A DNA stretch of 64,000 bases, taken from NCBI GenBank assembly GCA_963732475.1, contig CAVSZR010000001.1, positions 11,631 to 75,630 of the forward strand, in the 5' to 3' direction. The translations under genes and the position numbers were made by a program. The notes beneath the pieces were generated by a model. It had not been told where the DNA came from and ran no database searches. It was given only the letters and a program-made list of their open reading frames with translations. The stretch is from Blastocatellia bacterium (GTDB taxonomy: Bacteria; Acidobacteriota; Blastocatellia; Pyrinomonadales; Pyrinomonadaceae). This document shows positions 9,650-54,732 of this stretch, in pieces (position 1 is the first letter of the stretch; each line of letters begins with the position of its first letter).

Positions 9650-12600
9650 TCAAAATCGCTTTCTAAATCGAACCTCAAAGCTGAAACTATTCCGGTCCTG
9701 AGTAACATTGCTCAACGACCGCTGTTCGTATTGCGCTACAAATGACAGCTTGTTTGAAACGCGATACTCGAGAGCGAGCACTTGATTCTGATCCTGTGAA
9801 AGATTTGTTGCGTACGTCACCCTCAAATTATTGTTGATCTGGCGGCCGACCGTGAGCCTTGCGGACGGATTGAGCCGCTGGCCGGAGATGATCGGATCGA
9901 TCTCAAACACATTCAGGCCAAAAAGCTTATCGGTCGCCTTGCGGGCCGGGTTATTGATTATTGAATCCGTCAGTATTTCGGCCGCCGTATTGATGCCGGT
10001 TTGGGCTAATGTTGGTATTCCTGCCTCGGTATTTGAAAGATTACCTGTGGTAATGAGTGAGATCACATCGGCCTGCGGCAGCGCAGGGCTCGATCGGACC
10101 GCTGCAACAAGTTGCTCGGTGTCGGTCAGTGATCCGGAAAGATTTACAAATATCTGATACCCTCCGATCTCGGATTCGGCCTGCAGGTTAATTATTGGCT
10201 CTATTTCAGTATTTGGCGGAAATTCCAACACGCCCCGTTGGACGATATATCGGTCCTTCCGGAAAAATACAGTGCCGCTGTTTGCGGTGATCCGGCCCGA
10301 AATTTGGGGCGTGTCGGTGTTTCCGGTCAGACGAAGTGACGCCGACGCTGTTAGATCGGCTATATTATTTCGCACCACCAGGGCATCACGGCCTTCGATC
10401 GTCAGATCGAAACGTGGCGCCTGTAATGACGTGGAACCACTCGCAAGCGAACCCTCCCGGCGTGCACCGACCACGTTTGCCAGGTCAATATCCCTTGTGT
10501 AAAGACTTCGCCTTGCAAGAATATTCCCGGCTATCAGGGTCGATAGGCCGGAGCCAACCCGGCGGCCCGATATCTCAAGTCTGGCGTCACCGGTCGTGAT
10601 GAAATTCTTTGGCAGCGGGACCGTGATGTTCGTTCCGGTAAGGTCAAAACGAAATGACGAGAGCTGCAGATCATCGCCGATCAAGGCTCCGCCACTTGCA
10701 ACAAATTTTCCGCCGCCAAGATAGCCGGTTGCCTGGTCGACCTGGATCTGATTAGACGAGAACAAGACTCGTCCCTGAAGACGGTCGAATGTCAGGCGAT
10801 CGGACCCGATAAAAGTTGCAAACGAAGCATTTTCAAGTACGGCCGTTCCGGAAAGGCGGGCCGTCTTATTCACACCCGCTATCCGTATGGAAATATCGGC
10901 GATCCCGGCAAAAAAATTGTCACTGGCTGAAATGCCCGGAATTATATTCAAGAGGCTCAAATTGATGCGGCCATCAAGCGACAAATTGTTTACGCCGTCC
11001 TCGGCAAGGGCCTTTGTACCGGCGATCGTCACGTTCGACCCACCGCCGGAAAAATCGAGCACTTTCAAAGGAAATTTCACGGGTGTTGAAGCGAACCACG
11101 ACCGGTTCAGTTGCGACCAGCGGCGTATCTTGAATTTGCAGGGCCAGCTGGGAAAATTGGGCCGAGCCCGTCAGATTATCCGTCGTGAAAACGGTTTTGC
11201 CGTTTGCGTCTTTCTGGGCGAGATTACCGCCGAATTCAACCCGTCCGGTTCCGGTACCGCCGATCGCCAAACCTTTTAGTTGAGGGACGAGAGCGACAAA
11301 CGGGCCCAACGGACTCTGATCGAAGTCGGTCTGTATCTGAAACGGAAGTCGTTCGTCCCCGAAATTTACCGAGGCATTTATGAGTTGCGGCCGGCCGTCG
11401 AGCGTTGCCACTAAGTCCGCGTTCAGCTTTTGGTCTGTCGTAACCCCCTTGAAAGTGACTTCTCCAAAGGCATTTTCGTTGACAATGACGTTGGTGGCAT
11501 TCCCGTTGAAAGTAATATTAAGGCCCGCAGGCCGGTCGATCTCACCGGTTGCCTTGGCGGTAAAATCGGTCGCCCCGGATATTGACGGAATGTTGCTGCT
11601 TTCAGGCAGGAATGAAAGCGCTAGCGGAAGCGGAACGGCCTTGCCGTTAACGTCGAGATCGAATGCCGTCGAAGATGTGTCGTAGGAGCCTTTAGCCCCC
11701 AAAAAGCCTTCGCCGACCCGAATCTCGCCGCTCTCGAGATCGATAAGCGTTCCTTTGAAAACAGCCTTAACCTTAAGGTTGTCGAATGTCTGGCCGGCGA
11801 TCGTTCCTTGGTCCGTTGCAATATTGACCTCGCCTTGCGATCGGTTCGGCAGTCCGCTGAGGTTGACCGTGCCGGTTGTCTTCCCAGTGAAATCCCTCAG
11901 GCGTTCCGGCAGATCGACGGGCAAGGCTGCGAGGAGATGGCCCGGCATTTACATTCGTTAGGGTCGCCTGAACTGAGATATTGTCTGCCCCGAGAGTAGG
12001 TACATTTACCGCAAATGCGATATTTCCGCCGTTTCGTTCCTGAAGCTTTCCGTTCCTGATATCTATCGCCGTCGGCGAAACGAGTATGTCGGTTGTAAGC
12101 GATCCAAGCTCGGTTCCCCGCAGCGATATGGAATCAAGCGATGCCCTTCCATCCACTGCAGGGTCTGTAAGATTGCCCGTTACCTTCCCGTCAAAACTCA
12201 AATTGCCGGCAACACTGGCTTTCATCGAATCGAACTGCGATTCAAACTCCGGTGACAGGCCCAGCACCCGCACCAGCCTTTCGATCTCGTTTGCATCTGT
12301 CGATCTGAGAGCAACATCCAGATTCGAATCATCGGTTCTGAGATCGAAACGGCCACTGGCATTCAGTTCGCTCTTTTCAGTGTTCAACTTCGCAAGATCG
12401 ACCCTGAAAAGGCCGTTCGTTGCCGAAAGATCGATTTTGCCGTTGACAGGGATCGTGCCGCGACCGACGCTGCCGGCGTTTGCAATGACGTCCGCATTTA
12501 TCGTTCCGCTGGTTGTCCGGTAATCTGTCCCGTCGAATGTCAGATTTACCTTGCCCGACGTTCGTCCTTCAACGGGAATTACGCGACCGCCTTGCAGAGC

Positions 12601-14780
12601 GGCCACCTTGGCTAAGTCGAGATCGGAGAAATCAACAACGATACGCGAATCGCTTCGGTCGTTGAGGGCGATCGTCGCGTTGCCATTCACTTGTCCGTTC
12701 ATGACATTGGCATTCAGATCGTTCAGTTCGACGCGGTCGTTGTTGACATTCATCTTCGCGGACGCCGCGCCGAGCGGAATGCTGCCGACGATGCCGCCGC
12801 CGATACTCATATCGGCGCTTGCCCGATAGCGTCCCGAAGGTTCGACGACGAAAACCGGCTTTACGATCTTCACCGCCTCCAACATGCCCCCTTCAGGGAT
12901 CACGCTGTTTTTGACCAATGCAACGTTCCCGGCGTCTATATCATTCGAGGTTCCTTCAACCCGGCCTTCGCGGATAGTGAGCCGAACGCCGGCGATATTC
13001 AAACTGCCGAGGATCGCACCTTCGGCAGCGATCTTGGCGACCCGTATGGTGTCGGAATAGATCCGCGTGTCCGCACCTCTGTCCTCTATATCTACTGACG
13101 GAGCGGACACGCCGGTTATGATCGTACCGTCGGCGTCGACCCGATCGGCCTGAAGATCTTTAAGCTGGATGTCAAGGCCGTCAGGGCTGTCGTTGAGAGC
13201 AAATGAACCGGCCCGCAAATCGCTGGCTTTATTGTTCTTGAGCGTCGCGCTCCTTGCAGAAAGAGTGTCGAGGTTGACGGTTGTCCGGTCGTTAGCGTTC
13301 TTCACGCGGAGGTTGCGCCCCGTCAGGCCGTCGAGCCTGAAATCGGGCGTTTTCAGGGATGAAGCAGTGGCACTCGGAGCCAAAATATTGACCGTTCCGT
13401 TTTTACCCGCGATCTTCAAATTCCGAGCCGTAAGTTCAGCAAATTCCGTGTCGCCGATCGAGAATTTCTTTGCCCGTCCGGTGCCGACATTTCCGGTAAG
13501 CTGTTTGTCTTTGTATTCTGCGACGGCGTCCGAAAGAAACAGCCCGCCAAGCGTCAGCGATTTCGATTTCGCAGCTATCGCCTGCAGTTCACCGACCCAG
13601 CGGAAGTCAGTACCGGTTCCGCGAACGTTGCCCGCGATCTTCGGAAATTCGATGCGGAAATCCTCGAACGTCAACAGTTCCGCAACAGCCGTTCCGTTCG
13701 CTTCATACGAAGAATTTGTGCCTTCGACCGTGGCGGCGACGTTGACGGCCTTAAGATAAATGCCCTCCGCCGCAGCGACTCTGAGTCGATCTTGCCGTCA
13801 ACCTTATACTGCTCGCCTTCGCCTGAAACCGTTCCCTTGAAGTTTCCGACGCCGCGGATCGATGTGCCGAGCGGAAAGATCGTCGAGGTTTGCGTTAGGT
13901 CGACTGAGGATTCGATATTCAGGTTGTATTTGAGAGCAGCCCAGTCTGTGACCTTTCCATTCATTGTCGACTCGCCGATGGGTGTCGTCAGCTTTAAATT
14001 TGTTATGTCCGCACCCATCCGGTCGGCGATCCCAACCGCACGAATGTCGACCGGCGTCAACGGCCTGTCGTCGTAAACAAATTTTGAAGCCGTAGAGCTG
14101 AGGTCGAATTTATACCGTTTTTGATCGTCGGGGACGTCGTAATTTTCGGGTTCCAGAAGAAATGTCAGGTTGTTGGCGTCGGCCGCGATCTTTCGCGAAA
14201 CATCGCCAAAATGAACAACGCTGTCGCGAAGGGTGAAATTGATCGATTGGTATTTGAAGTTGACACGGCTACCCGCCTGATCTTCAACAAGGTGCAGATT
14301 AGAAAAATTAGACTTGCCGTCGGCGTCAAACTTTATCCAGGCCTCTGCTCCGTTAATTTCTGTTTTATCGATGCTAATGTCTCGGCTGAGCTGCCAGGCA
14401 TAGAGGTTTTGCACCGTCAATCCAAGCCGGGCGTCGCGGACGAAGAAAAGTTTTTCTCCGGAAATCTTATCGTTGAATGTCGCGTTCTTAAGCTCCAACT
14501 CCAACGGCGAGAGCGTAAGTCGAAAAACGTCGGCGTCGAACACGACACCGATCTCTTCCATCTTCGCTGTGAATTGATTTTTAACGTAGGTATCAGCCAC
14601 TCCGTTGCGGTAAAGGACGACCGCGATGATGGCCGCGAGTCCGACGCCAACCAGCAACAGGCCTAAAACCACGACAAGATTGCGGCGAGCAAAGAACCGC
14701 CTCCGATGGGGGGGTGCCGGCGGATCGTTCGCAGCGTCTCCTTCGTCCTTGATCGGTTCGATGTTCTCTTCTTCGGGCAT
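9650..14780 (-). CDS. tamB: TamB-like translocation and assembly module protein (DUF490 C-terminus), fragmented into 4 ORFs
   Basis: ORFs 13671..14780 (N-terminal TM anchor), 11773..13674, 10974..11948 and 9650..11080 overlap end to end. All carry repetitive beta-rich sequence. The C-terminus LSFVAQYEQRS...SFEVRFRKRF is DUF490-like. Confidence 0.7.
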
Positions 14781-21725: not shown

Positions 21726-22182
21726 ATGGCTGAGAAACAAACAATCGAAGTGGTTCTTGAAAAGCACGAAAAGCTTGATGCGACGGGCATCACGATCCCG
21801 TTCGATGTCGAAAAAATATTCGGTGCGAAGCGGGTGCCGGTGAAGGCGGAGATAAATGGCGCCGTTTACCGCGGGTCGATCGTGACGGATGAGCGGCAAA
21901 TATATGCTTGGGATCCCAAAGGCTTTTCGCGAAGAAGCCGGGATCGCCGCCGGTGATAACATTGTAGTTACGATCGCACTGGACGAAACCCCTCGGACCG
22001 TCGAGGTGCCCGCCGATCTGGCGAAAGCGATCGAGAAAGCCAAGCTCACGGTTGCCTGGGAAAAGCTGAGCTATACGCACAAGAAGGAACACGTGCGTGC
22101 GATCGAAGAGGCGAAACAGGAAGCGACGAGGATCAAACGTATAGAAAAGGCGGTGGCGATGATCGCTGCCAAGAGTAAATAG
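21726..22182 (+). CDS. DUF1905 / YdeI-family protein (frame shift near 21895)
   Basis: ORF 21726..21956 ([35 protein letters not shown]) continues in ORF 21889..22182 ([17 protein letters not shown]...[25 protein letters not shown]). Confidence 0.55.
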
Positions 22183-22187
22183 CAACA

Positions 22188-23472
<1,285 letters not shown>

Positions 23473-25585: not shown

Positions 25586-26349
25586 ATGAAACTCACATTT
25601 CTCGGAACAGGCACATCTACAGGGGTTCCATCGATCGCATGCGATTGTGAAACGTGCCTTTCCGACGATCCTCGCGACAAACGTCTCAGGGTTTCCATCC
25701 TGATCGAACATAAAGACAAGAAGATCCTGGTCGATACGTCGATCGATTTTCGTCAACAAGCTCTTCGGGCAAATATCCGGCATCTCGATGCTGTACTGAT
25801 CACGCATTGCCACGTCGATCATGTCTTCGGACTCGACGACATCAGGCCGCTTAATTTTCGCTACGGGGCGATGGGCGTTTATGCGAACGATGTCGCGTGG
25901 ACAGATCTCAGGCGAATTTTTCAGTACATTTTTCAGCCGACACATTTCGGCGGCGGGCTGCCGCAGTTGATACCGCATACTGTCGTGCCGAACTCACCGT
26001 TCTGCATTGGCGAAGATCTAGAGATTACGCCGCTCGAAGTTACGCACGGCAAACTGCCCGTCATCGCCTACCGCTTTAACGATTTTGCGTACGCGACCGA
26101 TCTGAAAGTGATCCCGCCCGATTCAATGGACGGCCTCCGCGATCTTGACGTCTTGGTTTTGGATTGCGTCCGCATCAAACCGCACTCAACGCATCTGTGC
26201 CTGGAGGAAGCGTTGGCAATCATAGAAGATCTCAATCCAAAACGCGCTTTCTGACCCACCTGAATCACGATATTATGCACGGACGCGATTCGAAATTGTT
26301 GCCGGATAATGTCAAGTTTGGCCATGACGAATTAATAGTCGAGTCTTAG
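25586..26349 (+). CDS. MBL-fold metallo-hydrolase (PhnP-like; frame shift near 26245)
   Basis: FLGTGTSTGVP and ITHCHVDH carry the HxHxDH motif. The C-terminus FLTHLNHDIMHG continues in ORF 26164..26349. Confidence 0.7.
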
Positions 26350-27913: not shown

Positions 27914-30327
27914 ATGGACACATACATCGGTCAATCCGCCGCCGCAGCAAGGCAATTAGAAGAACCGGCACAGACAACGATGCGCGTTGCCAAGCGCAAC
28001 GGCTCGCTTGAACCGGTCGATATCAATAAGATCGTCCGGGCCATCTCTCGCTGCTGTGTAAATCTGCCGAGCGTGGACGCGATGCGGATCGCGACCAAGA
28101 CGATCAGCGGCCTTTATGACGGCGCGACGACCAAAGAGCTTGACAAGCTTTCGATACAGACGGCAGCGAGCCTGATCTTCGAAGAGCCGGAATATTCGCG
28201 GCTCGGGGCTCGGCTCCTGAACCAGTATGTTGAAAAAGAGGTCCGCAATCAGGAAATTCATTCGTTCTCACAGTCGATCGCGTTTGGCGTAAAGGAAGGC
28301 CTTATCGCCCAACGTGTAGTCAACTTCGTTTCGGAAAACAGCCGCAAGCTGAATGACGCAATAGACCAGACCCGCAACGATCTATTCGAATTTTTCGGTC
28401 TCCGCACCTTGTACGATCGATATCTATTAAAAAATCCCGTAACGCGCGACGTTATCGAGACCCCGCAGTTTTTCTGGATGCGCGTCGCTTGCGGCCTTTC
28501 CGAAACGCCGAACGAAGCTATCGAACTTTACCGTCTCTTTTCATCGCTCGAATACGTGCCGAGTACGCCGACGCTCTTTAACTCGGGTACCAAACACGAG
28601 CAGCTCTCGTCTTGCTTCCTGCTCGATTCACCGCAGGACAGCCTGGAGAGCATTTACAAGAAATACTCCGACGTCGCTATGCTGTCGAAATTTTCGGGCG
28701 GCATCGGCATTGCATACAGCCGCGTGCGTTCGCAGGGTTCGCTGATCCGCGGAACGAACGGCCATTCGAACGGCATCGTGCCTTGGCTCAAAACGCTCGA
28801 TTCGTCGGTTTCGGCGGTAAATCAGGGCGGCAAGCGTAAAGGTGCCTGCTGCGTTTATCTTGAAACGTGGCACTCGGACATCGAAGATTTCCTTGAGCTT
28901 CGCGACAATACCGGCGACGAGGCCCGCCGCACGCACAACCTCAATACTGCGAATTGGATACCCGACCTCTTTATGAAACGGGTCCAGGCCGACGAGATGT
29001 GGTCGCTGTTCGACCCGAAGGTCGTGCCGCATTTTCCGGATGTTTACGGGGAGGAATTTGAAAAGGCTTACGTCGAAGCCGAAGAAGCCGGACTGTTCAC
29101 TCGGCAGTTAAAAGCCCGCGACCTGTACGCAAAAATGATGCGGACGATGGCCCAGACCGGCAATGGCTGGATGACGTTTAAGGACGCCGCAAACCGCAAA
29201 TCGAACCAGACGGCAAAACCCGGGAATGTCGATACATCTTTCGAATCTCTGCACCGAGATACTTGAGGTCACGTCCGAGAACGAAACCGCGGTTTGCAAT
29301 CTCGGTTCGATAAATCTTTCGACGCTACGTGAACAGCGACGGTTTTGATTTTGATAAATTGCGGTCGAATGTACGGCTGGCCGTTACGCAGCTTGACCGC
29401 GTGATCGATCTTAATTATTACGCGATCGAGAGCACGGCGGATTCGAACAATCGTTGGCGCAACATCGGCCTCGGGCTGATGGGCCTGCAGGATGTGTTTT
29501 TCGGGCTGCGGCTGCCGTTCGATTCCGAAGCCGCAAGAACGCTCTCGGCAAAGATACAGGAAGAGATCTATTTTGCCGCCCTCGACGCCTCGTGCGAGCT
29601 GGCGATCAAACGCGGCAAGCACCCGGCCTTTGAAGAAACGCGTGCGGCACAGGGCGTTTTCCAGTTCGACCTGTGGGGGATCGTGCCCGAAGACACGGAA
29701 CGCTGGGACGCACTGCGTGAAAAAGTCAAACAGCACGGCCTTCGCAATAGCCTGATGATCGCCATTGCGCCGACTGCGACGATCGCCTCGATCGCCGGCT
29801 GCTACGAGTGCATCGAGCCGCAGGTATCCAACCTTTTCAAACGCGAAACGCTGTCGGGCGATTTTGTTCAGGTCAACAAATATCTTGTCAAAGAATTGAA
29901 AGCGGCCGGGCTGTGGACGGACGAGATCCGCAACAAGATCAAACTTTCGGAAGGTTCGATCCAGGACATCGAAGAATTTCCCGAAGAACTGAAAGCGATC
30001 TACCGGACGGCATGGGAGGTGCCGATGCGTTCGCTGATCGACATGATGGCGATCCGCGGTGCCTTCATCGACCAGAGCGCTTCGCTAAACCTGTTCATGG
30101 AAAGCCCGAATATCGGCAAGCTTTCGTCGATGTACATGTACGCGTGGGAAAAGGGTTTGAAGACAACCTATTACCTTCGCTCGCGGCCGGCGACGAAGAT
30201 CGCGCAGGTGACGGCGGACTATAAGGTGTCGGAGCTCGTGCCCGAAGTGGCGGAAAAGGTTTACACGGACGAAGAAGCTTTGGTTTGCTCGCTGGAAAAT
30301 CCCGAGGCTTGCGAGGCGTGTCAGTAG
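27914..30327 (+). CDS. nrdA: ribonucleoside-diphosphate reductase alpha subunit (two frame shifts near 29225 and 29325)
   Basis: [54 protein letters not shown], then [25 protein letters not shown] in a third frame, then ORF 29329..30327 ([13 protein letters not shown]...TTYYLRS). An alternative start is at 27980. Confidence 0.9.
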
Positions 30328-30329
30328 CG

Positions 30330-30746
30330 AATTTCGAATAACGAATATCGAATGATGAATGAAGGAGTTTGATCTAAAGTCGCGAACAAAGAGTTTTGCA
30401 TTGAGGATAATCAAACTTTTTACGTCGCTACCAAAAACGGCAGAGGCGCAGGTCATCGGAAAACAGATATTGCGAAGCGGGACTAGTGTCGGTGCTCAGT
30501 ACCGAGAGGCTTGTCGAGCCCGCTCAAACTCGGAATTCATCAGCAAAATGGCAAGTAGTCTTCAGGAACTGGATGAAACGTCTTATTGGCTCGAGCTCTT
30601 AGTAGACGCAAATTTCATAAAAGCCGAAAAGCTAAAAAGCCTTCAGGATGAAGCAGATCAATTGATAGCTATTTTTGTCTCGTCGATCAAGACCGCTAAG
30701 GCAAAGAAATAACGAATTCATCATTCGATATTCGATATTCGAAATT
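30330..30746. repeat. 31-nt inverted repeat (30 of 31 complementary) enclosing the four-helix-bundle ORF; IVS-like stem-plus-cargo module
   Basis: The left arm is 30330..30360 (aatttcgaataacgaatatcgaatgatgaat). The right arm is 30716..30746 (attcatcattcgatattcgatattcgaaatt). The nrdA stop ends at 30327 and the nrdB ATG is at 30748. Confidence 0.85.
30359..30712 (+). CDS. four-helix-bundle protein (23S rRNA intervening-sequence protein family, TIGR02436-like)
   Basis: FDLKSRTKSFALRIIKLFTSLPKT..VIGKQILRSGTSVGAQYREACRARSNSEFISKMASSLQELDETSYWLELL follows the family pattern, including the E..YWL helix. Confidence 0.85.
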   Translation: MKEFDLKSRTKSFALRIIKLFTSLPKTAEAQVIGKQILRSGTSVGAQYREACRARSNSEFISKMASSLQELDETSYWLELLVDANFIKAEKLKSLQDEADQLIAIFVSSIKTAKAKK

Positions 30747-30747
30747 T

Positions 30748-31745
30748 ATGTTACTCGACCCAGGATTCAACCTCACCCTTCGCCCGATGAAGTACCCGGA
30801 TTTTTATGAAATGTATAAAAATGCGATCAAGAATACGTGGACCGTCGAAGAGGTCGATTTTTCGACCGACGTGACCGATCTGCGAAACAAGATGTCCGGC
30901 CCGAGCGGCATATGATCAACCGGCTGGTCGCGTTTTTTGCGACCGGCGATTCGATCGTTTCGAACAATCTCGTACTAAATCTCTACAAGCACATCAATTC
31001 GCCCGAAGCCCGGATGTACCTGTCGCGTCAGCTTTACGAAGAGGCGGTGCATGTGCAGTTTTACTTGACGCTGCTCGACACGTATATTCCCGACCATCAC
31101 GAACGCGAACAGGCGTTTGCGGCGATCGAGAATATTCCGTCGATCCGCAAAAAGGGCGAGTTTTGCATGAAGTGGATCGACACTATTTCCGATCTGGATT
31201 CGCTAACGACGAAGGAAGAACGGAAGCAGTTTTTGCTGAACCTTATCTGTTTCGCGACTTGCATCGAAGGGCTGTTCTTCTTCGCGGCTTTCGCGTACGT
31301 CTATTTTCTGCGTTCGAAGGGTCTGCTGCACGGCCTGGCGGCCGGTACGAACTGGGTCTTTCGCGACGAGTCGGCGCATATGAACTTTGCATTGGAGGTC
31401 GTTAATCAAGTCCGCAACGAAGAGCCGGAGCTGTTCGATCACGACCTGACTCGGCAGATCGTCGAAATGCTTGACGAGGCGGTCGAATGCGAAATGCAGT
31501 TTGCCGAGGACATCCTGAGCGGCGGCGTCGCCGGGCTGTCGGTCGCCGACATGCGGCAGTATCTCGAATTCGTCGCCGACCAACGCCTCGCCATGCTCGG
31601 GCTGCAAAAGGTTTACGGAGCAAAAAATCCGTTCTCGTTCATGGATCTGCAGGACGTCCAGGAACTGGCCAACTTCTTCGAACGCCGCGTCTCGGCCTAT
31701 CAGGTCGCGGTCGCGGGAGAGGTGAGCTTTAACGAGGCATTCTAG
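30748..31745 (+). CDS. nrdB: ribonucleoside-diphosphate reductase beta subunit (frame shift near 30900)
   Basis: MLLDPGFNLTLRPMKYPDFYEMYKNAIKNTWTVEEVDF (55 codons, unlisted) continues as ERHMINRLVAFFATGDSIV. The metal site is YEEAVHVQFY, with Tyr at the radical position. The second site is FRDESAHMNF. Confidence 0.9.
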
Positions 31746-31770
31746 AGGAATTACCGATCAGAAGAACAAG

Positions 31771-31797
31771 GGGCGGCCATGGTGCCGCTCTTTTATT
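31771..31797 (+). terminator. rho-independent terminator candidate after nrdB
   Basis: The stem is GGGCGGC/GCCGCTC with loop catggt, followed by TTTTATT, 26 nt after the nrdB stop. Confidence 0.45.
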
Positions 31798-31865
31798 GGC
31801 TTCATGTGTCATTCCTTCCATCTGACACAAAGGTGACCAAGTTTGAGCATCGGGCTTTAACGAAG

Positions 31866-33938
31866 TCAGATCGACAGTCCGACGTTGCCTTCCAGAACCT
31901 GTACATCGAGGTGCGGCCGCTCGCCCGGTTTCCACAGCTTGGCGACATGGGCGACGCGGTAGCGTATCGGGCCGCCGTCCGGCTCGGGCTTCGGGTGATG
32001 GGCCGCGGGATGCAGACGAACTCGGTTCGCATCTCATTGGCCGTGAGACTGCACCTTCGCGTAGCCGTGGCCGCCTAGGTCGACGAACTCGAGGTGCGGC
32101 GCGAGCTGCGGGTTCGAGAGGCCGAGTGCTCGCTTGAGGTCGAAGCTTTTCGCATATTCGAGGCAAGAGCGGACGCCGTGGCGCAGCAGCATGTTGTAGG
32201 TCCAATCCGGCTTGCCGCCGTCCGGGTCGGTCGGCCAGGAAGAGGGCCCGCAGCGGATGATCTTTGCGGAGGCCATGCTCTAAGGCTTCCATTCGCACCC
32301 GGGCTTGTCAATGACCCTCCGACGAAGCTCAATCCGACGGGCTCAAATTTCCGCGGCGGAAGATGTGCGGCGGCGTATCCGGCCCAGAAGGCGTGGCGGT
32401 CGCCGGACACGATCGCAAAGCCCGTGATCTTCGCATCGCGCACGAGGTCGTAGATCTCCTTCCGCTCGGCATAGGCCGCGCCGAAATCGTCGGTCCTGCC
32501 TATCCCGTAAGTGTCGGCCGGCCACGGATTCTTCACCATTCCGGCGGGAAGGTTTTGCATATCCACGCGGTTGTCGAGAGCGCCGAGCGAATTTCCCCAG
32601 ATCTTCCACGTCGCCTTCGACTTGCGCAGCTGAGTCCTTGAACCACGCCTTCTGCTCGACGCCGAGGATGGTCCGCGGCTGCTTGTCTTTGCTCGGGTTC
32701 GGAATGCGCACATCGCGGAATTGAAGTTCGGCAGGCGGCTTCCCGCCGTCGAAGGCGCGTCCCGCGTCGAGCGCGATCATCGCTTCCTCCGAAAAGTAGC
32801 CGCGGAACGACGGGTCGTAGATCTTTCCGACCTCCTCCGCGTCGCTCGGGTCTTCGCCGGCGAAGCTGCGCTGGTCGGTGATGATGAGGTCGAGGTGCTT
32901 GCCGTATCGGAACGCGCGGTAAGCGATCAGGCTGCGGATCGCGGCGAGGTTGTTCGGCTCTTGACCCAGCCCGTTCTCGTCCCACTTGTCGATCTTGACG
33001 TTCTTGACCGCAACCTTCCCGAATTCGGCGAGCGAGCCGCTCGGCGGCGTGACGCGAGCCGGAATGTATTCGAACCAGGCCTGATTGGCGGCGACCTTGA
33101 CGGTCTGGCCGGGCTGCGGCGGACCGCCCTGCTGGAGAATGCTTTGTCGGCCCTGCCACGAGAATTCGTGATTGTCCCACATGCAGACGAACGGCCAGCG
33201 GGCGCGGGCATCCTGCAGGTCGGGATCGGCGAGATAGCCTTTCCATACGGCGCGGTAGCCGTCAACGGTTTTCGGCCAGTAGAGGTTGCCGGTCTTTCCC
33301 GCGTCGGGGATGCGGCAGACCTCGTAGATCGTCCGGTCATAGCGGGTGGCTCCTTCTTCCGGATATTGAACGACCTCGTAGATGAAGTCGCCAAGGTGCA
33401 GCACAAAGCCAAGCTGATCCGCGGCCTGAGCGCGTTCGTCTTCGAAGATCATCCGGCGATAACCGTTGAGCTTTCCTTCGTTGACGCTCTGGCAGCTGAC
33501 GAATGCAAAATTGACGTCGCGGTCATCTTTGTCCGTTGGCGCTGTCATCGTACGGCCCACGCGGCTGCCAAACCCAAGGTCATCCGTGAATCGGTACCAG
33601 TAGACGGTACGCGGCTTAAGGCCGGCAACCAGAACGCGGCATGTCCAGTCAGCATCCGCTGAGATGGATGTCACGTTCTTTCCAACGACGCGTCGAAAGG
33701 CAGAGTCCTCAGCGATCTCAACCGTCAGTTTAGCCGCTGCCTTATCTACAGGCGGCCGCCGCGTCCACAAAATGATACTGTCGGGTGCAGGATCTCCCGA
33801 GGCTACGCCCTGCGGGAAAAGGTCGCGCCGCTCTTGCCAGCCAACCGACGAGGCTTGTGCTCGGCTCGTCGCCCACATCAACACAGCACCGAAGGATGCC
33901 GCCTGTTTTACAAATTCTCTCCGACTGATATTCTTCAT
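31866..33938 (-). CDS. phoD: PhoD-family alkaline phosphatase with Tat signal (at least 4 frame shifts; may be a pseudogene)
   Basis: The Tat signal is SRREFVKQAASFGAVLMWATSRAQA. PhoD-like motifs include FVSCQS, HLGDFIYE, WDNHEF and, in ORF 32075..32713, IVSGDRHAFWAG. The C-terminus continues in two further frames down to LEGNVGLSI-stop at 31866. Confidence 0.75.
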
Positions 33939-34029
33939 ATCTTCTCCTGCCGTATGTCACGGGTTTGCTATTTTGTGTTATTAATACGGCTGCTTGCGGA
34001 GAGAAGTTTTTATTATGGTTAACGTTAAG

Positions 34030-34183
34030 ACGGTCGTCGCAAAAAAATCTACGACGCACAGAACCCTTTCGCGTACTGGATCTGCTTGAGGACGTGCAGG
34101 AACTGGCCAACTTCTTCGAACGCCGCGTCTCGGCCTACCAAGTTGCTGTCGCGGGTGATGTGTCATTTAACGAGGCATTTTAA
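34030..34183 (+). pseudogene. orphan duplicate of the nrdB 3' end (last ~50 codons)
   Basis: ...QKNLRRTEPFRVLDLLEDVQELANFFERRVSAYQVAVAGDVSFNEAF-stop compares with the nrdB end ...QKVYGAKNPFSFMDLQDVQELANFFERRVSAYQVAVAGEVSFNEAF-stop. 34097..34137 is identical to 31659..31699 (41 nt). Confidence 0.8.
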
Positions 34184-34192
34184 GAGTTTTAG

Positions 34193-34262
34193 CTCGCGAA
34201 TTACGCAAATAACCGCGAATGAGATAATCTTTTCTTATTCGCTCTTTTCGCGTAATCGCGGG
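34193..34262. repeat. triple-unit hairpin (unit CGCGAAT)
   Basis: The left arm CTCGCGAATTACGCAAATAACCGCGAATGAG pairs, with bulges, to the right arm CTTATTCGCTCTTTTCGCGTAATCGCGGG. It lies between the relic nrdB stop and the next gene. Confidence 0.7.
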
Positions 34263-34278
34263 CAAAATTCTTATAGCA

Positions 34279-35256
34279 ATGAACAATCAGATCACAGACT
34301 TTATTAAACACCACTACCGCCATTTCAATTCGGCGGCACTTATCGACGCGTCCGAAGCATACGTAAAGCATCTAGACGCTGGCGGGAAGATGATGATCAC
34401 GCTTGCAGGTGCAATGTCGACGGCGGAACTTGGGCTGAGCCTCGCGGAGATGATACGTCAGGACAAGGTGCAGATAATTTCTTGTACGGGGGCGAATCTT
34501 GAGGAGGACCTTTTCAATCTCGTCGCTCACGATTTCTACGAACGCGTGCCGCATTACCGCGACCTGACGCCGCAGGACGAACAATCCCTGCTCGACCGGC
34601 ACATGAATCGCGTGACGGACACCTGCATCCCGGAACACGAGGCAATGCGGCGGCTTGAAAAAGCGATGGTCGATGTCTGGACCCGGGCCGAGGCCGAAGG
34701 GCAGCGTTACTATCCGCACGAATTTATGTATCAAGTGCTGAAAAACGGCTCGCTTGAAGAGTATTACCAGATCGACGTGAAAGATTCGTGGATGTACGCC
34801 GCTATGGAGAAGAACCTTCCGATGGTCGTGCCGGGCTGGGAAGATTCGACGATGGGCAATATGTTCGCTGGCCACGTCATCACCGGCGATGTCGAGAACG
34901 TCCACACCGTTCGCACCGGCATCGAGTATATGACGATGCTCGCCGAATGGTACACAGAAAACGCTAAGGACGATTCGACCATCGGTTTTTTCCAAATCGG
35001 CGGCGGCATCGCCGGTGATTTCCCCATCTGCGTAGTACCGATGCTCCACCAGGACTTGCAGCGAGACAACGTTCCCGTTTGGGGTTATTTCTGCCAGATC
35101 AGCGACTCTACGACCAGCTACGGCTCCTACTCTGGCGCAGTGCCGAACGAAAAGATAACCTGGGGCAAACTCGAAGCGACAACACCTAAGTTCATCGTCG
35201 AATCCGACGCCTCGATCGTCGCACCGCTCATGTTTGCTTATATTTTGGGGTGGTAA
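34279..35256 (+). CDS. deoxyhypusine synthase-like protein
   Basis: Intact 325-aa ORF. TLAGAMSTAELG, ISCTGANLEEDLF, GWEDSTMGNMF and QIGGGIAGDFPI are characteristic of the bacterial DHS-like family. Confidence 0.8.
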   Translation: MNNQITDFIKHHYRHFNSAALIDASEAYVKHLDAGGKMMITLAGAMSTAELGLSLAEMIRQDKVQIISCTGANLEEDLFNLVAHDFYERVPHYRDLTPQDEQSLLDRHMNRVTDTCIPEHEAMRRLEKAMVDVWTRAEAEGQRYYPHEFMYQVLKNGSLEEYYQIDVKDSWMYAAMEKNLPMVVPGWEDSTMGNMFAGHVITGDVENVHTVRTGIEYMTMLAEWYTENAKDDSTIGFFQIGGGIAGDFPICVVPMLHQDLQRDNVPVWGYFCQISDSTTSYGSYSGAVPNEKITWGKLEATTPKFIVESDASIVAPLMFAYILGW

Positions 35257-35274: not shown

Positions 35275-35736
35275 CTAATTTTTTCTTTGAAGTTCGATCA
35301 GATCGTTGATATCTTTTGGCCTTCCGCTAGCTTGTTTGTTGACGAGCAGGTCATTGTAGCTGATCACTTTCGCCGCGCAGCCATCGATCTCAGTGTCCAT
35401 ACGCCGTGAGTAGCAATCGGCAAAATACACACCGTCGATGTGGGTAATGACCTCGATCTTGAACGGGGCAATGCCCATTCGTACTATACTTTTTTCAAGC
35501 GTAAATAACTCGGGTGACAGTTCATCTGATGCAAGGCCAAAGGTTACAAAGACTCGATATATCCTTTCGGCGTTTTCCTTAGAGTTCAAAATCCAGAAAT
35601 CGATGTCGCCCGTCGGTCTCGGATAACCGTGCAAACCGACCGCGTAGCCGCCAACGAGCAGATATTCAACCTCATTCGCCTCTAACAATCTCAAGAACTC
35701 TTTGAAGTCTTCGGGTAGCCGGATCGTTGTATCCAT
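35275..35736 (-). CDS. nucleotidyltransferase-fold protein (DUF2204/AbiEii-like toxin candidate)
   Basis: From the internal Met at 35736: LPEDFKEFLRLLEANEVEYLLVGGYAVGLHGYPRPTGDIDFWI has a GG...GDID nucleotidyltransferase-type signature. The C-terminus is GRPKDINDLIEL. Confidence 0.55.
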   Translation of the reverse strand: MDTTIRLPEDFKEFLRLLEANEVEYLLVGGYAVGLHGYPRPTGDIDFWILNSKENAERIYRVFVTFGLASDELSPELFTLEKSIVRMGIAPFKIEVITHIDGVYFADCYSRRMDTEIDGCAAKVISYNDLLVNKQASGRPKDINDLIELQRKN

Positions 35737-35884
35737 AGGCACTTTGTCGCATAAGCTCAAGGGCGTGGAGGCGTTCGTCAATCGTAGCGTCGTGCCAATG
35801 CTGGCGGTCGGCCTCGTCGGCGTCTTCAAAACTGGTAAAGACCTGAATTGCCGTCCTGTCGAGTTTTACGTCATCGATATTCAC
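35672..35884 (-). CDS. small hypothetical protein upstream of the nucleotidyltransferase (antitoxin candidate)
   Basis: A 70-aa ORF (KLDRTAIQVFTSFEDADEADRQHW...ERLHALELMRQSAYGY). It overlaps the start of the nucleotidyltransferase gene by 65 nt in another frame. Confidence 0.4.
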   Translation of the reverse strand: MNIDDVKLDRTAIQVFTSFEDADEADRQHWHDATIDERLHALELMRQSAYGYNDPATRRLQRVLEIVRGE

Positions 35885-35950
35885 TATCTAATTATACCAT
35901 TTATCGCACAGTGTTTTTGCTAATATTAGATAGGTCTTTAAGGTAGTTTC

Positions 35951-37402
35951 ATGGAACATTTTGACGTCTTAATTATCGGTGCGGGGTTGTCGGGGATCGG
36001 TGCCGGTGCACATCTGCGGATGGAATGTCCGGACAAGACGTTCGCAATTCTCGAGGGACGTGAGCGGAGCGGTGGGACTTGGGATCTGTTTCGATATCCG
36101 GGTGTCCGGTCGGATTCGGATATGTTCACGCTCGGATATAGCTTTCGGCCGTGGCGGGACCAGAAAGCGATCGCCGATGGGCCTTCGATCCTCAGATACA
36201 TTCGCGAAACTTCGGCCGAATATGACCTCGATAAGGAGATACGCTACGGACATCGCGTCAGGCGTGCGACTTGGTCTTCCACAGACTCGCGATGGACAGT
36301 CGAGGTCGAAATCGCCGATGGCCGCTCGATTACATATTACATGTTCCTTTCTGTATCTGTGCACGGGCTACTACGAGTACGAACAGGGCTACACGCCTGA
36401 TTGGCCGGGATTTGACGATTACAAAGGAACCATAATTCATCCGCAAAAATGGCCCGAGGGACTCGACTACGCGGGCAAGAACGTTCTCGTGATCGGTAGC
36501 GGTGCGACGGCGGTGACGCTCGTTCCGGCGATGGCGGAAACGGCAAAGCATGTGACGATGCTGCAGCGTTCGCCGACGTATATCGTGACGATGCCGTCGC
36601 AGGATAAGGTCGCGAACTTGTTTCGCTCGCTGCTGCCGGCGAAGGCCGCGTACGCGGCGGCACGTTGGAAGAATATCGTTCGGCAGGCGTTCTTTTACGC
36701 GGGGTCCAGAAAATATCCCAACGCGATGAAGCGGCTGATCGGCAAAAGGCGTCCGCAAAGAGCTCGGTGACGAACAGCTCGAAAAGAATTTCACGCCGAA
36801 GTACAACCCGTGGGAACAGCGTCTTTGCGTCGTTCCCGATTCTGACCTCTTCGAGGCGATCCGCGAACGGAAAGGCGTCGATCGTAACCGGGAATATCGA
36901 GACCTTCACCGAAACTGGCGTGCGCCTTGAAAATGGCGAGGAGCTTAACGCTGATATCATCGTTACCGCCACCGGCCTCAATCTCAAGATCATGTCCGGC
37001 CTCGAACTCGTTGTCGACGGTGAACCGGTCGATCTATCAACAAAGCTTGCCTACAAAGGCATGATGTACAACGACGTGCCGAATCTCGCACAGGCATTTG
37101 GCTATACAAACGCCTCGTGGACGCTGAAATGCGATCTCACGTCAAAATATGTCTGCCGCCTGATCAAACACATGGACGAGCATGGCTTTGCGAGCTGTAC
37201 GGCACGTGCGGATGACCCGAGCCTTGAGCGTGTCCCGGTGCTCGATTTCAATTCGACCTACGTTCTCCGCGTGCTCGACGAGCTGCCGAGCCAAGGGTCA
37301 AAGCACCCTTGGCGGCTGCATCAGAACTATTTTAAAGATCTGTCGATGCTCCGCTACGCCCGGCTTGATGACGGTGTGATGGAGTTTCGACGCCCAGATT
37401 GA
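35951..37402 (+). CDS. flavin-containing (Baeyer-Villiger type) monooxygenase (at least 3 frame shifts)
   Basis: The FAD motif is VLIIGAGLSGIGAG. The BVMO-like fingerprint is YKGTIIHPQKWP. The second Rossmann motif is VLVIGSGATAV. The sequence continues through ORFs 35951.., 35979..36770 and 36665..37402. Confidence 0.8.
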
Positions 37403-37559: not shown

Positions 37560-38534
37560 ATGCGCGAGGCTAAGATTATTGTAACCGGCGGCGCCGGTTT
37601 CATTGGGAGTGCGGTCGTTTGGCGGCTGAATCAACTTGGTTATGACGACATTCTGATCGTCGACCGAATGGATGAAACGGACAAATGGCAGAACCTTGCT
37701 CCGCTGCGGTTTGCCGATTACCTGGACGCGGACGATTTTGCCGAAGATCTAGAAATGTTTACGGATACCGCTTGCGTCCTTCACCTCGGAGCGTGTTCCT
37801 CAACAACTGAAAGAGACTCGGATTATATGCTCCGCAATAACTTCGAATACACGAAGCTTGTTGCGGCATGGGCGTGGGCGAAGGATGTTAGGTTTATCTA
37901 CGCTTCCTCTGCGGCGACGTATGGCGACGGCTCGGCCGGGATGAATGACGGCACCGACGAACTGCAGGGTTGCGGCCGCTGAATGTTTACGGGTACTCGA
38001 AACACCTGTTCGATCAATTCGCGACTCGAAACGGGATGTTTGCCAGCATAGTCGGCTTGAAATATTTCAACGTCTTCGGGCCGAACGAAGATCACAAGGG
38101 CGATATGCGCAGCCTGGTGAACAAAGCGTTCGACCAGATAAACACAACCGGTAAACTCCAACTTTTCAAGAGTGCAAATCCCGCATACGCGGACGGCGAA
38201 TTTGGCCGCGATTTTGTTTACGTAAAAGATGCGGTCGATATGACGCTGCATTTTATGGAGAACAAAACCGGCGGCCTGTTCAATGTCGGGTCCGGTCGGA
38301 TGAATACTTGGAATGCCCTGGCGGCGGCCATATTCGAGGCCCTCGAACATCGAGCCGAACGTTGAGTTTATCGATATGCCGAAACACCTTCGCGACCGCT
38401 ATCAATATCACACGCAGGCCGATCTGACCCGGATTCGCGAGGCTGGATATAATGGGGAAATAACGCCATTAGGCGAGGCTGTCGCTGATTATGTTCGAAA
38501 TTATTTGAGACCCGGAAAACATCTGGGAGATTGA
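37560..38534 (+). CDS. hldD: ADP-L-glycero-D-manno-heptose 6-epimerase (two frame shifts near 37975 and 38345)
   Basis: IIVTGGAGFIGS, ...YASSAATYG, then PLNVYGYSK (YxxxK) and KYFNVFGPNEDHKG in ORF 37970..38365. The C-terminus YQYHTQADLTRIREAGY is in ORF 38313..38534. Confidence 0.85.
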
Positions 38535-47300: not shown

Positions 47301-49316
47301 ATAAGGAAAATTGTCGCACCAAAGCTGAAATACCAGCAGCGTCCACAGTTCTTTATGATGCGAAGCGCTCCGGTTTCGTGTTCTTTCATCAGCTTCTGCA
47401 CGTAATCCGCGTTGAACAGTCCCTGTTTGTTCAGCCGCTCGGGCGAGAGCATGTCGTGCATCAGCGGATTCAGGCGTCCTTTCAGCCATTCGGCGATCGG
47501 GATGCCGAAGCCTTTTTTGGGCCGGTGGAGGATGTCGTGCGGGAGCAGGTCTTTCATCGCTTCTTTCAGGATGACCTTGCCGCTTTTGCCTTTTAGTTTG
47601 TATTCGACCGGGATGGAGGCGGCGAACTGGCCGACTCGCGGGTCGAGGAACGGGGCACGCGTTTCGAGGCTGACGGCCATCGCGGCACGGTCGACTTTGG
47701 TCAGGATGTCCTCGGCCAGGTAGAAATTGATGTCGGCGTACTGCGTCTTTTCGATGATGTTCTTGGCGTCGGACGCGTCGACCAATTCGCGAACGCCGCG
47801 GTAGATGTCGGCTTCGGTTTGGGCGAGAACGTCTTTTGTGAAGAGCTTCTCGTGCTGCTCGACCGCGAACGAGCCGAACCAGCCGTGGTGCCGCGTTACG
47901 TCGTCGTGTTTGGCCGAGCGGACAAAGCGTTTCGCCTTGTAATCGAACGACATATTGTTGGTCGAAACCGGCAGGGCATTCACGACTGGTTCGATCAGGC
48001 CTGCTCGCGGAGAACGCCGGAATCGCGTTGTACTTAGCTGCGAGCGTGTGGGCGTAGTACATCGGATAGCCCGCGAAAAGTTCATCTCCGCCGTCGCCGC
48101 CGAGTGCGACCGTTACATGTTTTCTAACGAACTGGGCGAGCAGAAATGTCGGTATCAGCGAGCCGTCTGACATCGGCTCGTCCAGCCATTTGCCGATCTC
48201 GGAGATCAGATCGCCGGCGGTCGTTGCGGAGAGCTTGTCTTCGTAATGCTCGGTGTCGAGGTGCTTTGCGACTTTGCGTGCGTATTTCGATTCGTCAAAG
48301 GAATCTTCTTCGAAGCCGATCGAGAATGTTTTGACGCGTTCGGTCGCGTGCTGCGTTGCGAAAGCGGCGACGGTGGATGAATCGATCCCGCCGGAGAGCA
48401 GGATGCCGAGCGGCACGTCGGAGACGAGCCGCATGCGGACGGCATCTGACAATAAATCTCTCAACTCAACTGCCTTTCCGCTTAGCGTACTTTGCGTCTT
48501 TGCCGGAACGCGGACACTCGTGTTCGCCTCGCCGGTTCCTCCGGCGAGGCTGTCTTGACCGTTCTGAGACTCAAGGCCATTCGCGCTCGTTCGCGTCGAA
48601 GCGACGCTCATGCGGACAGGAGTGTCCGCACTCCAGCTCATATCCCAGTATCTTCGCGTCCGCACCTCGCCGTTTTCAACCGTTAGAACATGTGCGGCCG
48701 GGAGTTTGTGGATGCCTTTGTAGATGGACATCGGGGCCGGGACGTAATCGAAGGAGACGTAGTGGCGGAGGGCGTTGAGGTCGAGTTCGGGTTTGACCGA
48801 CGGGTGAGCGAGGATCGCTTTTGGTTCGGAAGCCCAGATCAGCTTGCCGTCGAACACGCCGTAATACAGCGGCTTTTCGCCGAAGCGGTCGCGGGCGATG
48901 ATGAGCTTTTTCTTTCGCGAATCCCACAGCGAAAAGGCGTACATGCCGTTTATGTGATCGATAAACGCATCGCCGAATTTCTGGTACAGGTGCGGCAATA
49001 TCTCGGTATCGCTTTGCGTGACAAATTTGAATCCGTCCTTTTCCAGCTCGGCCCTGACCTCGCGATAGTTATACAGCTCGCCGTTCATCATCACGATGAC
49101 CGACCTGTCTTCGCTGAACACCGGCTGGTCGCCCGTCTTCAGATCGATGATCGACAACCGCCGCATCCCCAACGCGACCGTCTCATCCGTCCACAACCCC
49201 TCGGAATCCGGCCCGCGATGCACGATAGTCTCACACATCGAGTGCAGCACGGACTCGGCGTTGTGGTTCGGTTTAGTTGTGTCCAGGTTGATCCAACCTG
49301 CTATTCCGCACATCAA
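47297..49316 (-). CDS. asnB: asparagine synthase (glutamine-hydrolysing) (frame shifts near 48000 and 47370)
   Basis: MCGIAGW is the N-terminal Cys nucleophile. SGGIDSS is the PP-loop. The C-terminal half is in ORF 47297..48085. A low-complexity insert lies after residue ~230. Confidence 0.85.
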
Positions 49317-49593
49317 TCTGTACTCTAGAGCTAGTCGATTTCTATTCGAATTCCGCCATCAGTCCTGCACTGATATTCGTCCGTCTCGTCTTTCAGCTCC
49401 ATAACGGGAATGTCGATCGACTGAAGACTCTAACCTCCTGGAATCACTTCATCGAAGTGAGTGCATAATGGGTAATCGATCCTTCGCGAAGTGCCTTAGA
49501 CCTGACATAAACTGCGATAGTCTGCAATCGTCGCGCATCCGAAATACATCGTTGGCCTGTACCGCCTCAAACGTCGCAATACTTTCCACTTAG

Positions 49594-54644: not shown

Positions 54645-54656
54645 TAGAAATAGTTT

Positions 54657-54728
54657 GCCACGAATTACACGAATTACACTAATAAGAACCAATGCGGAAA
54701 CATTCGTGTTATTTGTGCAATTCGTGGC
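54657..54728. repeat. triple-unit hairpin (unit CACGAAT)
   Basis: The left arm GCCACGAATTACACGAATTACAC and the right arm ...GTGTTATTTGTGCAATTCGTGGC form 20 Watson-Crick pairs plus 1 GU out of 23. The hairpin fills the gap between the stop at 54733 and the next start at 54644. Confidence 0.85.
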
Positions 54729-54732
54729 TGAT

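Follow-up and report, generated by a model that had tools for sequence, protein, structure and literature searches.

The element e14, integrated in the icd gene of Escherichia coli, supplies a new 3′ end to the gene, and the native end is left behind as a direct repeat, a pseudo-icd of 163 bp (PMC6379469). Hotspots of gene exchange that contain no mobile elements and show recombination in the core genes that flank them have been documented as well (PMC5635113). In homology-facilitated illegitimate recombination (HFIR), as two papers summarise it, foreign DNA is trapped next to a conserved anchor, while its other end is joined where there is no homology (PMC5361080; PMC3240628). Here I analysed a stretch of 64,000 nucleotides of an acidobacterial contig (CAVSZR010000001.1, Pyrinomonadaceae; hereafter the window), in which the 3′ end of nrdB, the gene for the small subunit of ribonucleotide reductase (RNR), occurs twice. 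A gene for an alkaline phosphatase D family protein (phoD) lies between the copies, and the second copy, hereafter the orphan, is followed by a hairpin and a gene for a deoxyhypusine synthase-like protein (DHS). It was found that the orphan is a composite of two parts of different age and that similar nrdB remnants recur in about eleven other lineages, with no recombinase gene found between the repeats. On the whole, I consider it somewhat probable that the nrdB-DHS interval is a hotspot of gene exchange worked by the homologous recombination of the host, free of integrases, and not the site of an integrase-bearing element.

The duplicated nrdB end

The last ~47 codons of nrdB are present at 31605-31745 and again at 34041-34183, both on the forward strand (gapped homology). 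The features of the locus are as follows; positions such as −140 are nucleotides counted from the stop codon, that is, the end of nrdB.

30748..31745, + strand: nrdB (Pfam Ribonuc_red_sm), complete to its stop codon, with one frameshift at ~30900
31605..31658, + strand: left arm of the in-gene tail, codons ~288-304; 39-51 of its 54 nt match the tails of 84 relatives
31659..31699, + strand: core, in-gene copy, the putative crossover tract
31700..31745, + strand: right arm of the in-gene tail with a TAG stop codon, directly followed by the terminator and phoD; phoD-bearing relatives have the same order
~31769-31792, no strand assigned: GC-rich hairpin between the convergent nrdB and phoD genes, terminator-like on both strands
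31866..33938, − strand: phoD, start at 33938 and stop codon at 31866-31868; the stitched product has 691 amino acid residues
33939..34040, no strand assigned: region upstream of phoD, which aligns with that of the phoD-bearing relatives L086, L145 and L141
34041..34096, + strand: left arm of the orphan; this piece of an nrdB tail is decayed and begins at −140 of the gene
34097..34137, + strand: core of the orphan, an exact copy of the in-gene core
34138..34183, + strand: right arm of the orphan with a TAA stop codon, contiguous with the conserved native hairpin
34184..34270, + strand: compound hairpin with an inner terminator-like stem (34215-34242), the native element 3′ of nrdB
34279..35256, + strand: DHS (Pfam DS), intact, the right-hand conserved flank of the hotspot

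The two tails match without gaps over 94 nt with 88% identity (31651-31744 versus 34089-34182). Inside this match lies an exact core of 41 nt (31659-31699, identical to 34097-34137), and the flanks of the core are 76-77% identical on either side. A duplicated nrdB end with this very core, diverging on both sides of it, had been noticed from the sequence alone in the original prediction, and all of this was confirmed. The extents given there (31598..31745 and 34030..34183) are correct at the right edges and too wide at the left, where the homology is ~7-11 nt shorter. The proposed check for further copies of the core was run over the 64 kb of the window; only the two known copies were found there, and none in shuffled sequences.

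Is a shared core of this length ordinary for nrdB? The background consisted of 3403 random pairs of distinct nrdB genes of the same family. Identical cores were found in 0.6% of these pairs, and in 3 of the 1426 pairs (0.2%) whose tail flanks are at most 80% identical. The core identity of the two tails exceeds the ordinary conservation of nrdB. A role of the core as a selected DNA site was considered and rejected: in third-position entropy along nrdB the core is unexceptional, and its conservation is due to two-fold degenerate codons. The tail was likewise examined for an attC fold of the integron kind, which was rejected, its stability being no better than that of shuffled sequence.

The in-gene tail encodes the family-consensus C-terminus up to the stop codon and is joined directly to the insert, as a replacement 3′ end that leaves nrdB complete. 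Its left arm appears functional from its translation, the protein motif KVYGAKNPFSFMDLQDV being the family consensus. In one phoD-bearing relative (L083), the alignment with the in-gene right arm continues past the stop codon into the intergenic terminator, and L083 has a homologous hairpin at this very place. Between the right arms of the two copies there are eight synonymous codon differences, including an AGC/TCA serine switch among the differing codons, and one conservative difference. Since the right arms differ almost only synonymously, both ends have diverged inside working genes and not as an untranslated local duplicate adrift.

The left arm of the orphan is of another kind. Compared with the in-gene left arm, it has four synonymous and six non-synonymous codon differences, a 3-nt insertion, and a 1-nt deletion. 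The codons of the orphan were then scored against the amino-acid repertoire of the 84 functional nrdB tails. Counting indels, 6 of the 18 codon positions of the left arm are in states never seen in those tails, and some of these aberrations fall within the otherwise invariant FMDL-QDVQEL motif. The core and the right arm (34097-34183) have no such codon among 29 (Fisher p = 0.0017 versus the left arm). The orphan is thus a chimera of an older, untranslated left arm and a core and right arm that look functional until recently, and the right arm is, to judge from its codons, the displaced end of a formerly working nrdB gene. Such uneven decay means that the left arm has been untranslated for far longer, which would place a recombination junction in or at the 41-nt core. 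The same three zones were found in the orphan of another locus (L117). In a third (L165), both tail copies are intact and differ almost only synonymously.

It had been proposed that the orphan is the displaced native end of nrdB. This holds for the core and the right arm, together with the hairpin and DHS behind them; the left arm is an older fragment. The AT-richer codons of the orphan, which had been taken as a sign of the native end, are ordinary synonymous differences between lineages. The similarity of the arms to relatives cannot tell which end is native.

The loci nearest to the window by DHS, nrdA and nrdB belong to uncultured Acidobacteriota labelled Pyrinomonadaceae or 'Chloracidobacterium sp. 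UBA7659'. DHS of the window is 92-96% identical in amino acids to DHS of Pyrinomonadaceae relatives, and its nrdB is 86.8% identical in nucleotides to that of L002 over the full length. The search for DHS relatives found no genome of the same species (best 94-96%), and an exact-sequence lookup of the DHS protein returned no public record.

The order of the orphan 3′ end, the hairpin and the start of DHS is collinear with insertion-free relatives (L109, L156, L115 and L091). In L109, DHS lies 94 nt after nrdB, and the spacer is 90% identical to the window hairpin (−41 kcal/mol, z = −7.4) over 89 nt; the hairpin is whole in L156 and partial in L115 and L091. Thus, the element after the orphan is the original downstream hairpin, as had been suggested, and the nrdB-hairpin-DHS arrangement lacking phoD, for which a synteny check had been proposed, exists in L109, L091 and L156. 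The in-gene end and the terminator are in turn collinear with relatives in which phoD converges on nrdB (L083-85, L086, L145, and L135/136), an orientation that is frequent in Pyrinomonadaceae.

On the nrdB side of the insert, no discontinuity against relatives was found. On the other side, the similarity of the phoD upstream region to relatives stops abruptly at ~34040 (junction J2), where it adjoins position −140 of the nrdB tail, and no significant similarity to other phoD loci was found beyond 34040. No significant orphan remnant was detected in the phoD-bearing loci L086, L145, L141 and L136, either by a profile search run at maximum sensitivity or by local alignment tested against shuffles. 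A single ancient insertion shared by all is thus unsupported. The left breakpoint was sought by sliding nrdB identity against phoD-bearing and hairpin-bearing relatives, which are distant (80-90%), and no clear switch was seen.

Recurrence between nrdB and DHS

I searched 88 related loci with a profile of the last 180 nt of nrdB. Extra nrdB tails were found in about eleven other lineages, always on the same strand as nrdB and downstream of it, and always with the stop codon kept. The loci and the E-values of the profile matches are as follows.

L165 and L161: ~1e-57
L117: 1e-49
Window: 8e-34
L133: 2e-23
L132: 4e-21
L081 and L141: 2e-16
L096: 7e-15
L144: 6e-14
L107, L111 and L097: weaker matches

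The cargo differs from locus to locus and is unrelated: an AAA_14/DUF4143 ATPase with a protein of 179 residues, VapBC-like PIN pairs, a Big-domain protein with TerC and TerB, an alpha/beta-hydrolase (in L141, between nrdB and phoD), lipocalin-like, M35-like and Metallophos proteins, and proteins of no known kind. Some inserts are as short as 300-800 nt. The left edges of the orphans lie at −190, −183, −177, −140, −109, −85, −69, −67, −60, and −35, and the longest identical tracts are found at different places, so there is no common crossover position. Nothing is conserved at the cargo borders of the orphan loci, which have no shared element ends.

No integrase or transposase was found between the repeats among the cargo open reading frames (ORFs) of at least 70 residues at ten other loci (20 ORFs scanned singly), nor among the 25 commonest of the 113 families from a scan of 143 cargo ORFs in nrdB-DHS intervals. 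The earlier statement that there is no integrase or transposase at the window locus, where only a terminator and phoD lie between the tail copies, thus stands, and it can be extended to the cargo scanned elsewhere.

A further orphan-bearing locus, besides those listed above, is L172 (1-7094), a metagenome-assembled genome (MAG) of Pyrinomonadaceae whose DHS is 94% identical to that of the window. It contains an array of two nrdB orphans, at 2168-2278 and 4168-4250, in the following order.

nrdB
two genes
orphan 1
Metallophos gene
DHS head fused to orphan 2
gene for a protein of 182 residues and AAA_14/DUF4143 gene
complete DHS

Orphan 2 proved to be fused to the remnant of a hairpin and to the ~47 initial codons of DHS (4016 to ~4160). 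Thus, the joints fall in both of the conserved flanking genes. The last cassette, with AAA_14/DUF4143, is the one that follows the working nrdB gene in L165, and the precomputed domains of L172 include no recombinase. DHS 5′ fragments upstream of the full DHS gene or in place of it were also observed in L111 (8054-8115, weaker) and L156 (7827-7892, a truncated head). These fragments suggest that the right-hand flank bears scars like those of nrdB. In annotation, neither the nrdB 3′ fragments nor the DHS 5′ fragments at this locus should be called genes.

Among the 31 loci with DHS downstream, the spacing between nrdB and DHS ranges from 94 nt to ~5 kb, and the genes in between are unrelated. 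Between L113 and L123/L124, the identity is ~75% up to −264 from the nrdB stop codon and then 100% through the stop codon; 522 nt of the cargo are 99.4% identical, while nrdB is otherwise 81% identical. This switch marks either a recent exchange within nrdB or a chimeric metagenome contig. The only differences between L161 and L165 are 20 mismatches, all in a single mosaic patch of 135 nt.

Viral contigs were scanned for the core motif as a phage attachment site (attP). There were two matches, both of them whole phage nrdB genes split by an intein-like insert. In these contigs (L167, 2113-4092, and L168, 4273-6252; one contig is 324 kb long), nrdB is interrupted for ~1 kb within an ORF of 664 codons. 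This looks like an intein or a homing element that is unrelated to the nrdB duplication.

In another locus (L171, 6146-7978; DHS 94%), a Lactamase_B gene directly abuts DHS and nrdAB is absent from the site. Thus, the whole nrdAB block can be missing or elsewhere.

phoD and the neighbouring genes

The product of phoD has the domains PhoD_N (PF16655, 8e-25) and PhoD (PF09423, 3e-32). The stitched protein is 86-90% identical over its full length (100% coverage) to proteins of 689 residues annotated as 'alkaline phosphatase D family' in Pyrinomonadaceae. Of the 120 close homologs listed, 12 have a source name, and all 12 are labelled Pyrinomonadaceae. Thus, phoD is a gene of the family and not an import from a distant donor. 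The N-terminus, MKNISRREFVKQAASFGAVLMWATSRAQA, read from the translation, contains the twin-arginine motif SRREFVK, by which the protein is predicted to carry a signal for twin-arginine translocation (Tat) and to be exported.

The reading frame of phoD is interrupted by four 1-nt insertions (~32634, 32293, 32223, and 32050) and one 1-nt deletion (~31983), called against five intact relatives and clustered in the 3′ third of the gene. A reverse-oriented, Tat-dependent phoD with a terminator had been described between the tail copies; its content, orientation and motif are as described, and the open frame is not. The possibility that phoD is a pseudogene was not accepted, the same single-base indels being present in nrdA, nrdB and at least five other genes.

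The insert is GC-richer than its flanks, as had been noted by eye: the GC content of 31746-34040 is 0.605, against a mean of 0.524 (sd 0.018, max 0.571) in other 2.2-kb windows of the 64 kb. This had been read as a mark of insertion from a foreign source, a reading that is not supported in view of two observations. The GC content at third codon positions (GC3) of phoD (0.74) equals that of the flanking nrdB (0.73) and DHS (0.69), and phoD is GC-rich in every relative (0.57-0.61, their nrdB and DHS being at 0.51-0.55). The excess of phoD sits in codon positions 1 and 2. Its high GC content is thus not to be taken as horizontal transfer.

Upstream of nrdB, and directly downstream of DHS, the following features were found.

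27914..30327, + strand: nrdA, large subunit of class I RNR, the upstream partner of nrdB, read in three frames
30330-30360 and 30716-30746: inverted repeats of 31 nt, 97% complementary, found nowhere else in the window
30359-30712: ORF for a 23S_rRNA_IVP (PF05635) four-helix bundle, bracketed by these repeats in the nrdA-nrdB spacer
35275-35829, − strand: ORF for a DUF6036/DUF2204 nucleotidyltransferase, directly downstream of DHS

The stem-plus-ORF layout of the nrdA-nrdB spacer resembles that of rRNA intervening sequences. Relatives hold other content there, so this gap is variable too. The DUF6036/DUF2204 ORF has no nucleotide similarity in L001, and in two relatives DHS is directly followed by LtrA; the ORF may thus be a further variable insertion of small size.

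nrdA has single-base frameshifts at ~29230 and ~29322, called by tblastn against ten relatives, and its Pfam domains (ATP-cone, Ribonuc_red_lgN, and Ribonuc_red_lgC) are spread over two ORFs. Frameshifts were observed in at least eight genes of the window: those at 22146-23466 and 26009-26343, nrdA, nrdB, phoD, an FMO-like gene (35945-37393, three frameshifts), an epimerase-like gene (37560-38531, two), and the gene at 47307-49337 (two). A TamB-like ORF (9650-13674) and a methyltransferase ORF (53875-55416) also appear split. RNR genes are normally indispensable. Since the encoded proteins are, in addition, still highly conserved, the frameshifts were read as consensus errors; the window probably comes from an error-prone, uncorrected long-read assembly, and the indels are probably errors and not marks of pseudogenes. 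In the nanopore-derived relative L001 (3106-5608), nrdA is split in two overlapping ORFs, and frameshifted RNR genes recur in long-read MAGs of the Pyrinomonadaceae group. The frameshifts of the window need a check against the reads before any gene is called a pseudogene.

Origin of the insertion and known systems

The ancestral arrangement would have been nrdB-hairpin-DHS. The incoming DNA would have come from a related genome with phoD convergent to nrdB, as a block composed of the donor nrdB end, the terminator, phoD, and an older, decayed nrdB tail fragment that an earlier illegitimate event had linked to the region upstream of phoD at J2 (~34040). Homologous recombination, presumably dependent on a RecA-type protein, within the 41-nt tract common to both tails would then have inserted the block. 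The product would be an nrdB gene with a complete end, followed by the terminator and phoD, and the recipient's own last ~29 codons with their hairpin would form the right part of the orphan, 2.4 kb further downstream. This geometry is that of a Campbell-type insertion-duplication, with a circular intermediate as one conceivable form of the incoming DNA. A double crossover that used a pre-existing orphan as the right-hand homology arm would give the same product. A crossover tract would produce the 41/41 identity of the core. Recombination-mediated capture from a donor nrdB locus, which was among the options named in the original prediction, fits the collinearity of the in-gene end, the terminator and phoD with those relatives in which phoD converges on nrdB.

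The same topology would result from one-step HFIR, which involves neither a circle nor a pre-existing orphan. A linear donor fragment would be anchored upstream in nrdB, and its far end would be joined illegitimately to the recipient nrdB at −140. In that case, all of the orphan would be native, and all of the in-gene tail would stem from the donor. The abrupt joint J2 suits an illegitimate end, just as the scattered left edges of the orphans elsewhere suit random illegitimate joints, and L113 and L123 show a crossover that lies well upstream of the tail, at −264. Moreover, HFIR has been demonstrated by experiment in bacteria capable of transformation, and similar displacement arrays have been ascribed to it (PMC5361080; PMC3240628). 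A native orphan is, however, expected to decay evenly, whereas 6/18 and 0/29 aberrant codons were found in its two parts (p = 0.0017), and the 41/41 core would be a coincidence at the level of 0.2-0.6%. One-step HFIR is thus an unlikely account of the whole locus. I regard as improbable a site-specific element of the e14/icd type, whose attP would lie in an nrdB-like 3′ end and whose integrase, after integration at the core, would have been lost or would be encoded elsewhere. The geometry is that of e14 in icd (PMC6379469), an identical core is present, the same gene end has been hit repeatedly across many lineages, and the three longest orphans start within 13 nt of each other (−177 to −190). 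Yet no integrase lies between the repeats at ~12 independent loci, where some inserts are of only 300-800 nt; the left edges are spread from −35 to −190 with identity tracts at differing places; conserved element ends are absent; DHS head fragments are found in mirror image; the viral contigs with the core motif carry whole phage nrdB genes instead of an attP; and the synonymous sites of the core are not unusually conserved. The decayed integrase island that had been put forward fails on the same facts, namely about eleven further scarred lineages with no integrase between the repeats and with such varied left edges.

Could the locus be an artefact of assembly, in which reads of phoD-positive and phoD-negative strains were merged in an error-prone long-read metagenome consensus? 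The locus is hypervariable between strains, the DHS protein has no exact public copy by which the structure could be cross-checked, and the frameshifts are dense, at least 17 of single bases in the ~30 kb of window sequence that could be compared, with 8 of them within 29.2-32.7 kb. An assembler cannot, however, create a decayed, 5′-truncated tail joined to the phoD upstream region, and about eleven further assemblies, made independently in different projects, show the same architecture, which makes an artefact highly improbable. Least probable of all is a vertical history, in which phoD has always been at the site and the orphan is a local tandem duplicate of the nrdB end that then drifted. 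It would accord with phoD being widespread beside nrdB in the family and with the GC3 of phoD, which equals that of its neighbours. Drift should have affected all codon positions, whereas the right arms differ by eight synonymous changes to one, including the AGC/TCA switch; what lies downstream differs between the two copies and is conserved separately for each; and the other phoD-bearing relatives have no detectable orphan.

Several points weigh against homologous recombination between a donor and a recipient nrdB end as the origin of the insert, besides the frameshifts just given. No sufficiently close genome shows the empty site or the donor (best DHS 94-96% in amino acids), and thus the direction of transfer and the breakpoint rest on pattern and not on direct comparison. 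When the arms were compared one by one with the nearest relatives in an attempt to assign native and donor ends, the in-gene arm was slightly closer to them, and the right arm in the gene looks no more foreign than the right arm of the orphan. No circular junction was observed. Gene conversion after the insertion could be another source of the identical core, and a recombinase may act in trans, the 143-ORF scan giving only the 25 commonest families. Finally, all relatives are MAGs or metagenome contigs, among which strain chimeras are possible.

Recombination of host type at the nrdB end can be carried one step further, to a possibility that I regard as doubtful though worth stating: the nrdB-end and DHS-start fragments might be portable homology handles for integrase-free cassettes, a natural, recombinase-free counterpart of integrons. 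The phoD gene, toxin-antitoxin pairs, ATPases, and hydrolases may then travel flanked by a functional tail and a decaying orphan; the cassettes may loop out or be taken up and dock by RecA-type recombination in the most conserved stretch of 26-41 nt; and repeated docking may build arrays like that of L172.

What does the locus mean beyond this gene? Hotspots that carry no mobile-element genes are common in bacteria, and the mechanism behind them is still mostly inferred; the nrdB-DHS interval gives a sequence-level record of how an accessory gene may enter one of them. The orphans are datable scars, which could serve to reconstruct in what order insertions entered uncultured soil Acidobacteria, and from where. 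As for the cargo, a PhoD phosphatase with a predicted Tat signal bears on phosphorus scavenging in soil.

How does the locus compare with known systems? In the laboratory, Campbell-type insertion-duplication with a non-replicating circle that carries a 3′ fragment of a gene yields an intact gene, the insert, and a 5′-truncated copy that keeps the stop codon. The product at nrdB is identical. Unlike the laboratory case, it would have arisen naturally, through diverged homology (~80% identity with an identical tract of 41 nt), and no circle was observed. Integron arrays are similar in having cargo of a single gene or a few genes at one entry point, with toxin-antitoxin pairs and small genes of no known function being common. 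They differ in that no IntI gene was seen at the nrdB locus, where the repeats are gene ends whose fold is no more stable than that of shuffled sequence.

With HFIR, as summarised in the two papers cited above, the locus shares a homologous anchor on the nrdB side and a non-homologous joint at ~34040. In contrast, the uneven decay of the orphan and the identical core put the last recombination inside the duplicated segment, and HFIR may better explain the older joint J2 than the final step. Studies of HFIR are reportedly those of de Vries and Wackernagel in 2002, Prudhomme et al. in 2002, and Meier and Wackernagel in 2003.

The displacement arrays of rhs, contact-dependent inhibition (CDI) and type VI secretion system (T6SS) loci (Jackson et al. 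2009; Kirchberger et al. 2017) also have 3′ ends that were pushed downstream free of integrases, as new 3′ modules came in at the conserved gene, and L172 is such an array made of nrdB. Their tips encode differing toxins and immunity proteins under selection for diversity, whereas the NrdB C-terminus encoded by the two nrdB tails is the same, and what varies is the unrelated cargo that separates them. Since the tails encode the same function, the locus is not a polymorphic-toxin displacement locus.

Like e14 (and phage 21) in icd, the insert supplies a replacement 3′ end, the native end lies beyond it as a direct repeat, and there is an identical core. In contrast, e14 has its own integrase and one fixed att site, while at nrdB the repeats enclose no recombinase gene, the edges and the identical tracts shift from event to event, and an ordinary gene of the family is the sole cargo in the window. 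An integrase, the defining feature, was looked for between the repeats and not found, and the locus is not a member of the integrase-island class.

The likeness is closest to the hotspots that contain no mobile elements (PMC5635113), which also have fast-changing content between conserved genes and recombination tracts in the flanks; they have no integrases, and none was seen among the nrdB-DHS cargo families listed or the ORFs scanned singly. Plain double crossovers in such hotspots leave no scar, whereas nrdB tails and DHS heads remain here and record single events. The locus is best classed with the hotspots lacking mobile elements, to which it adds an unusual and informative scar.

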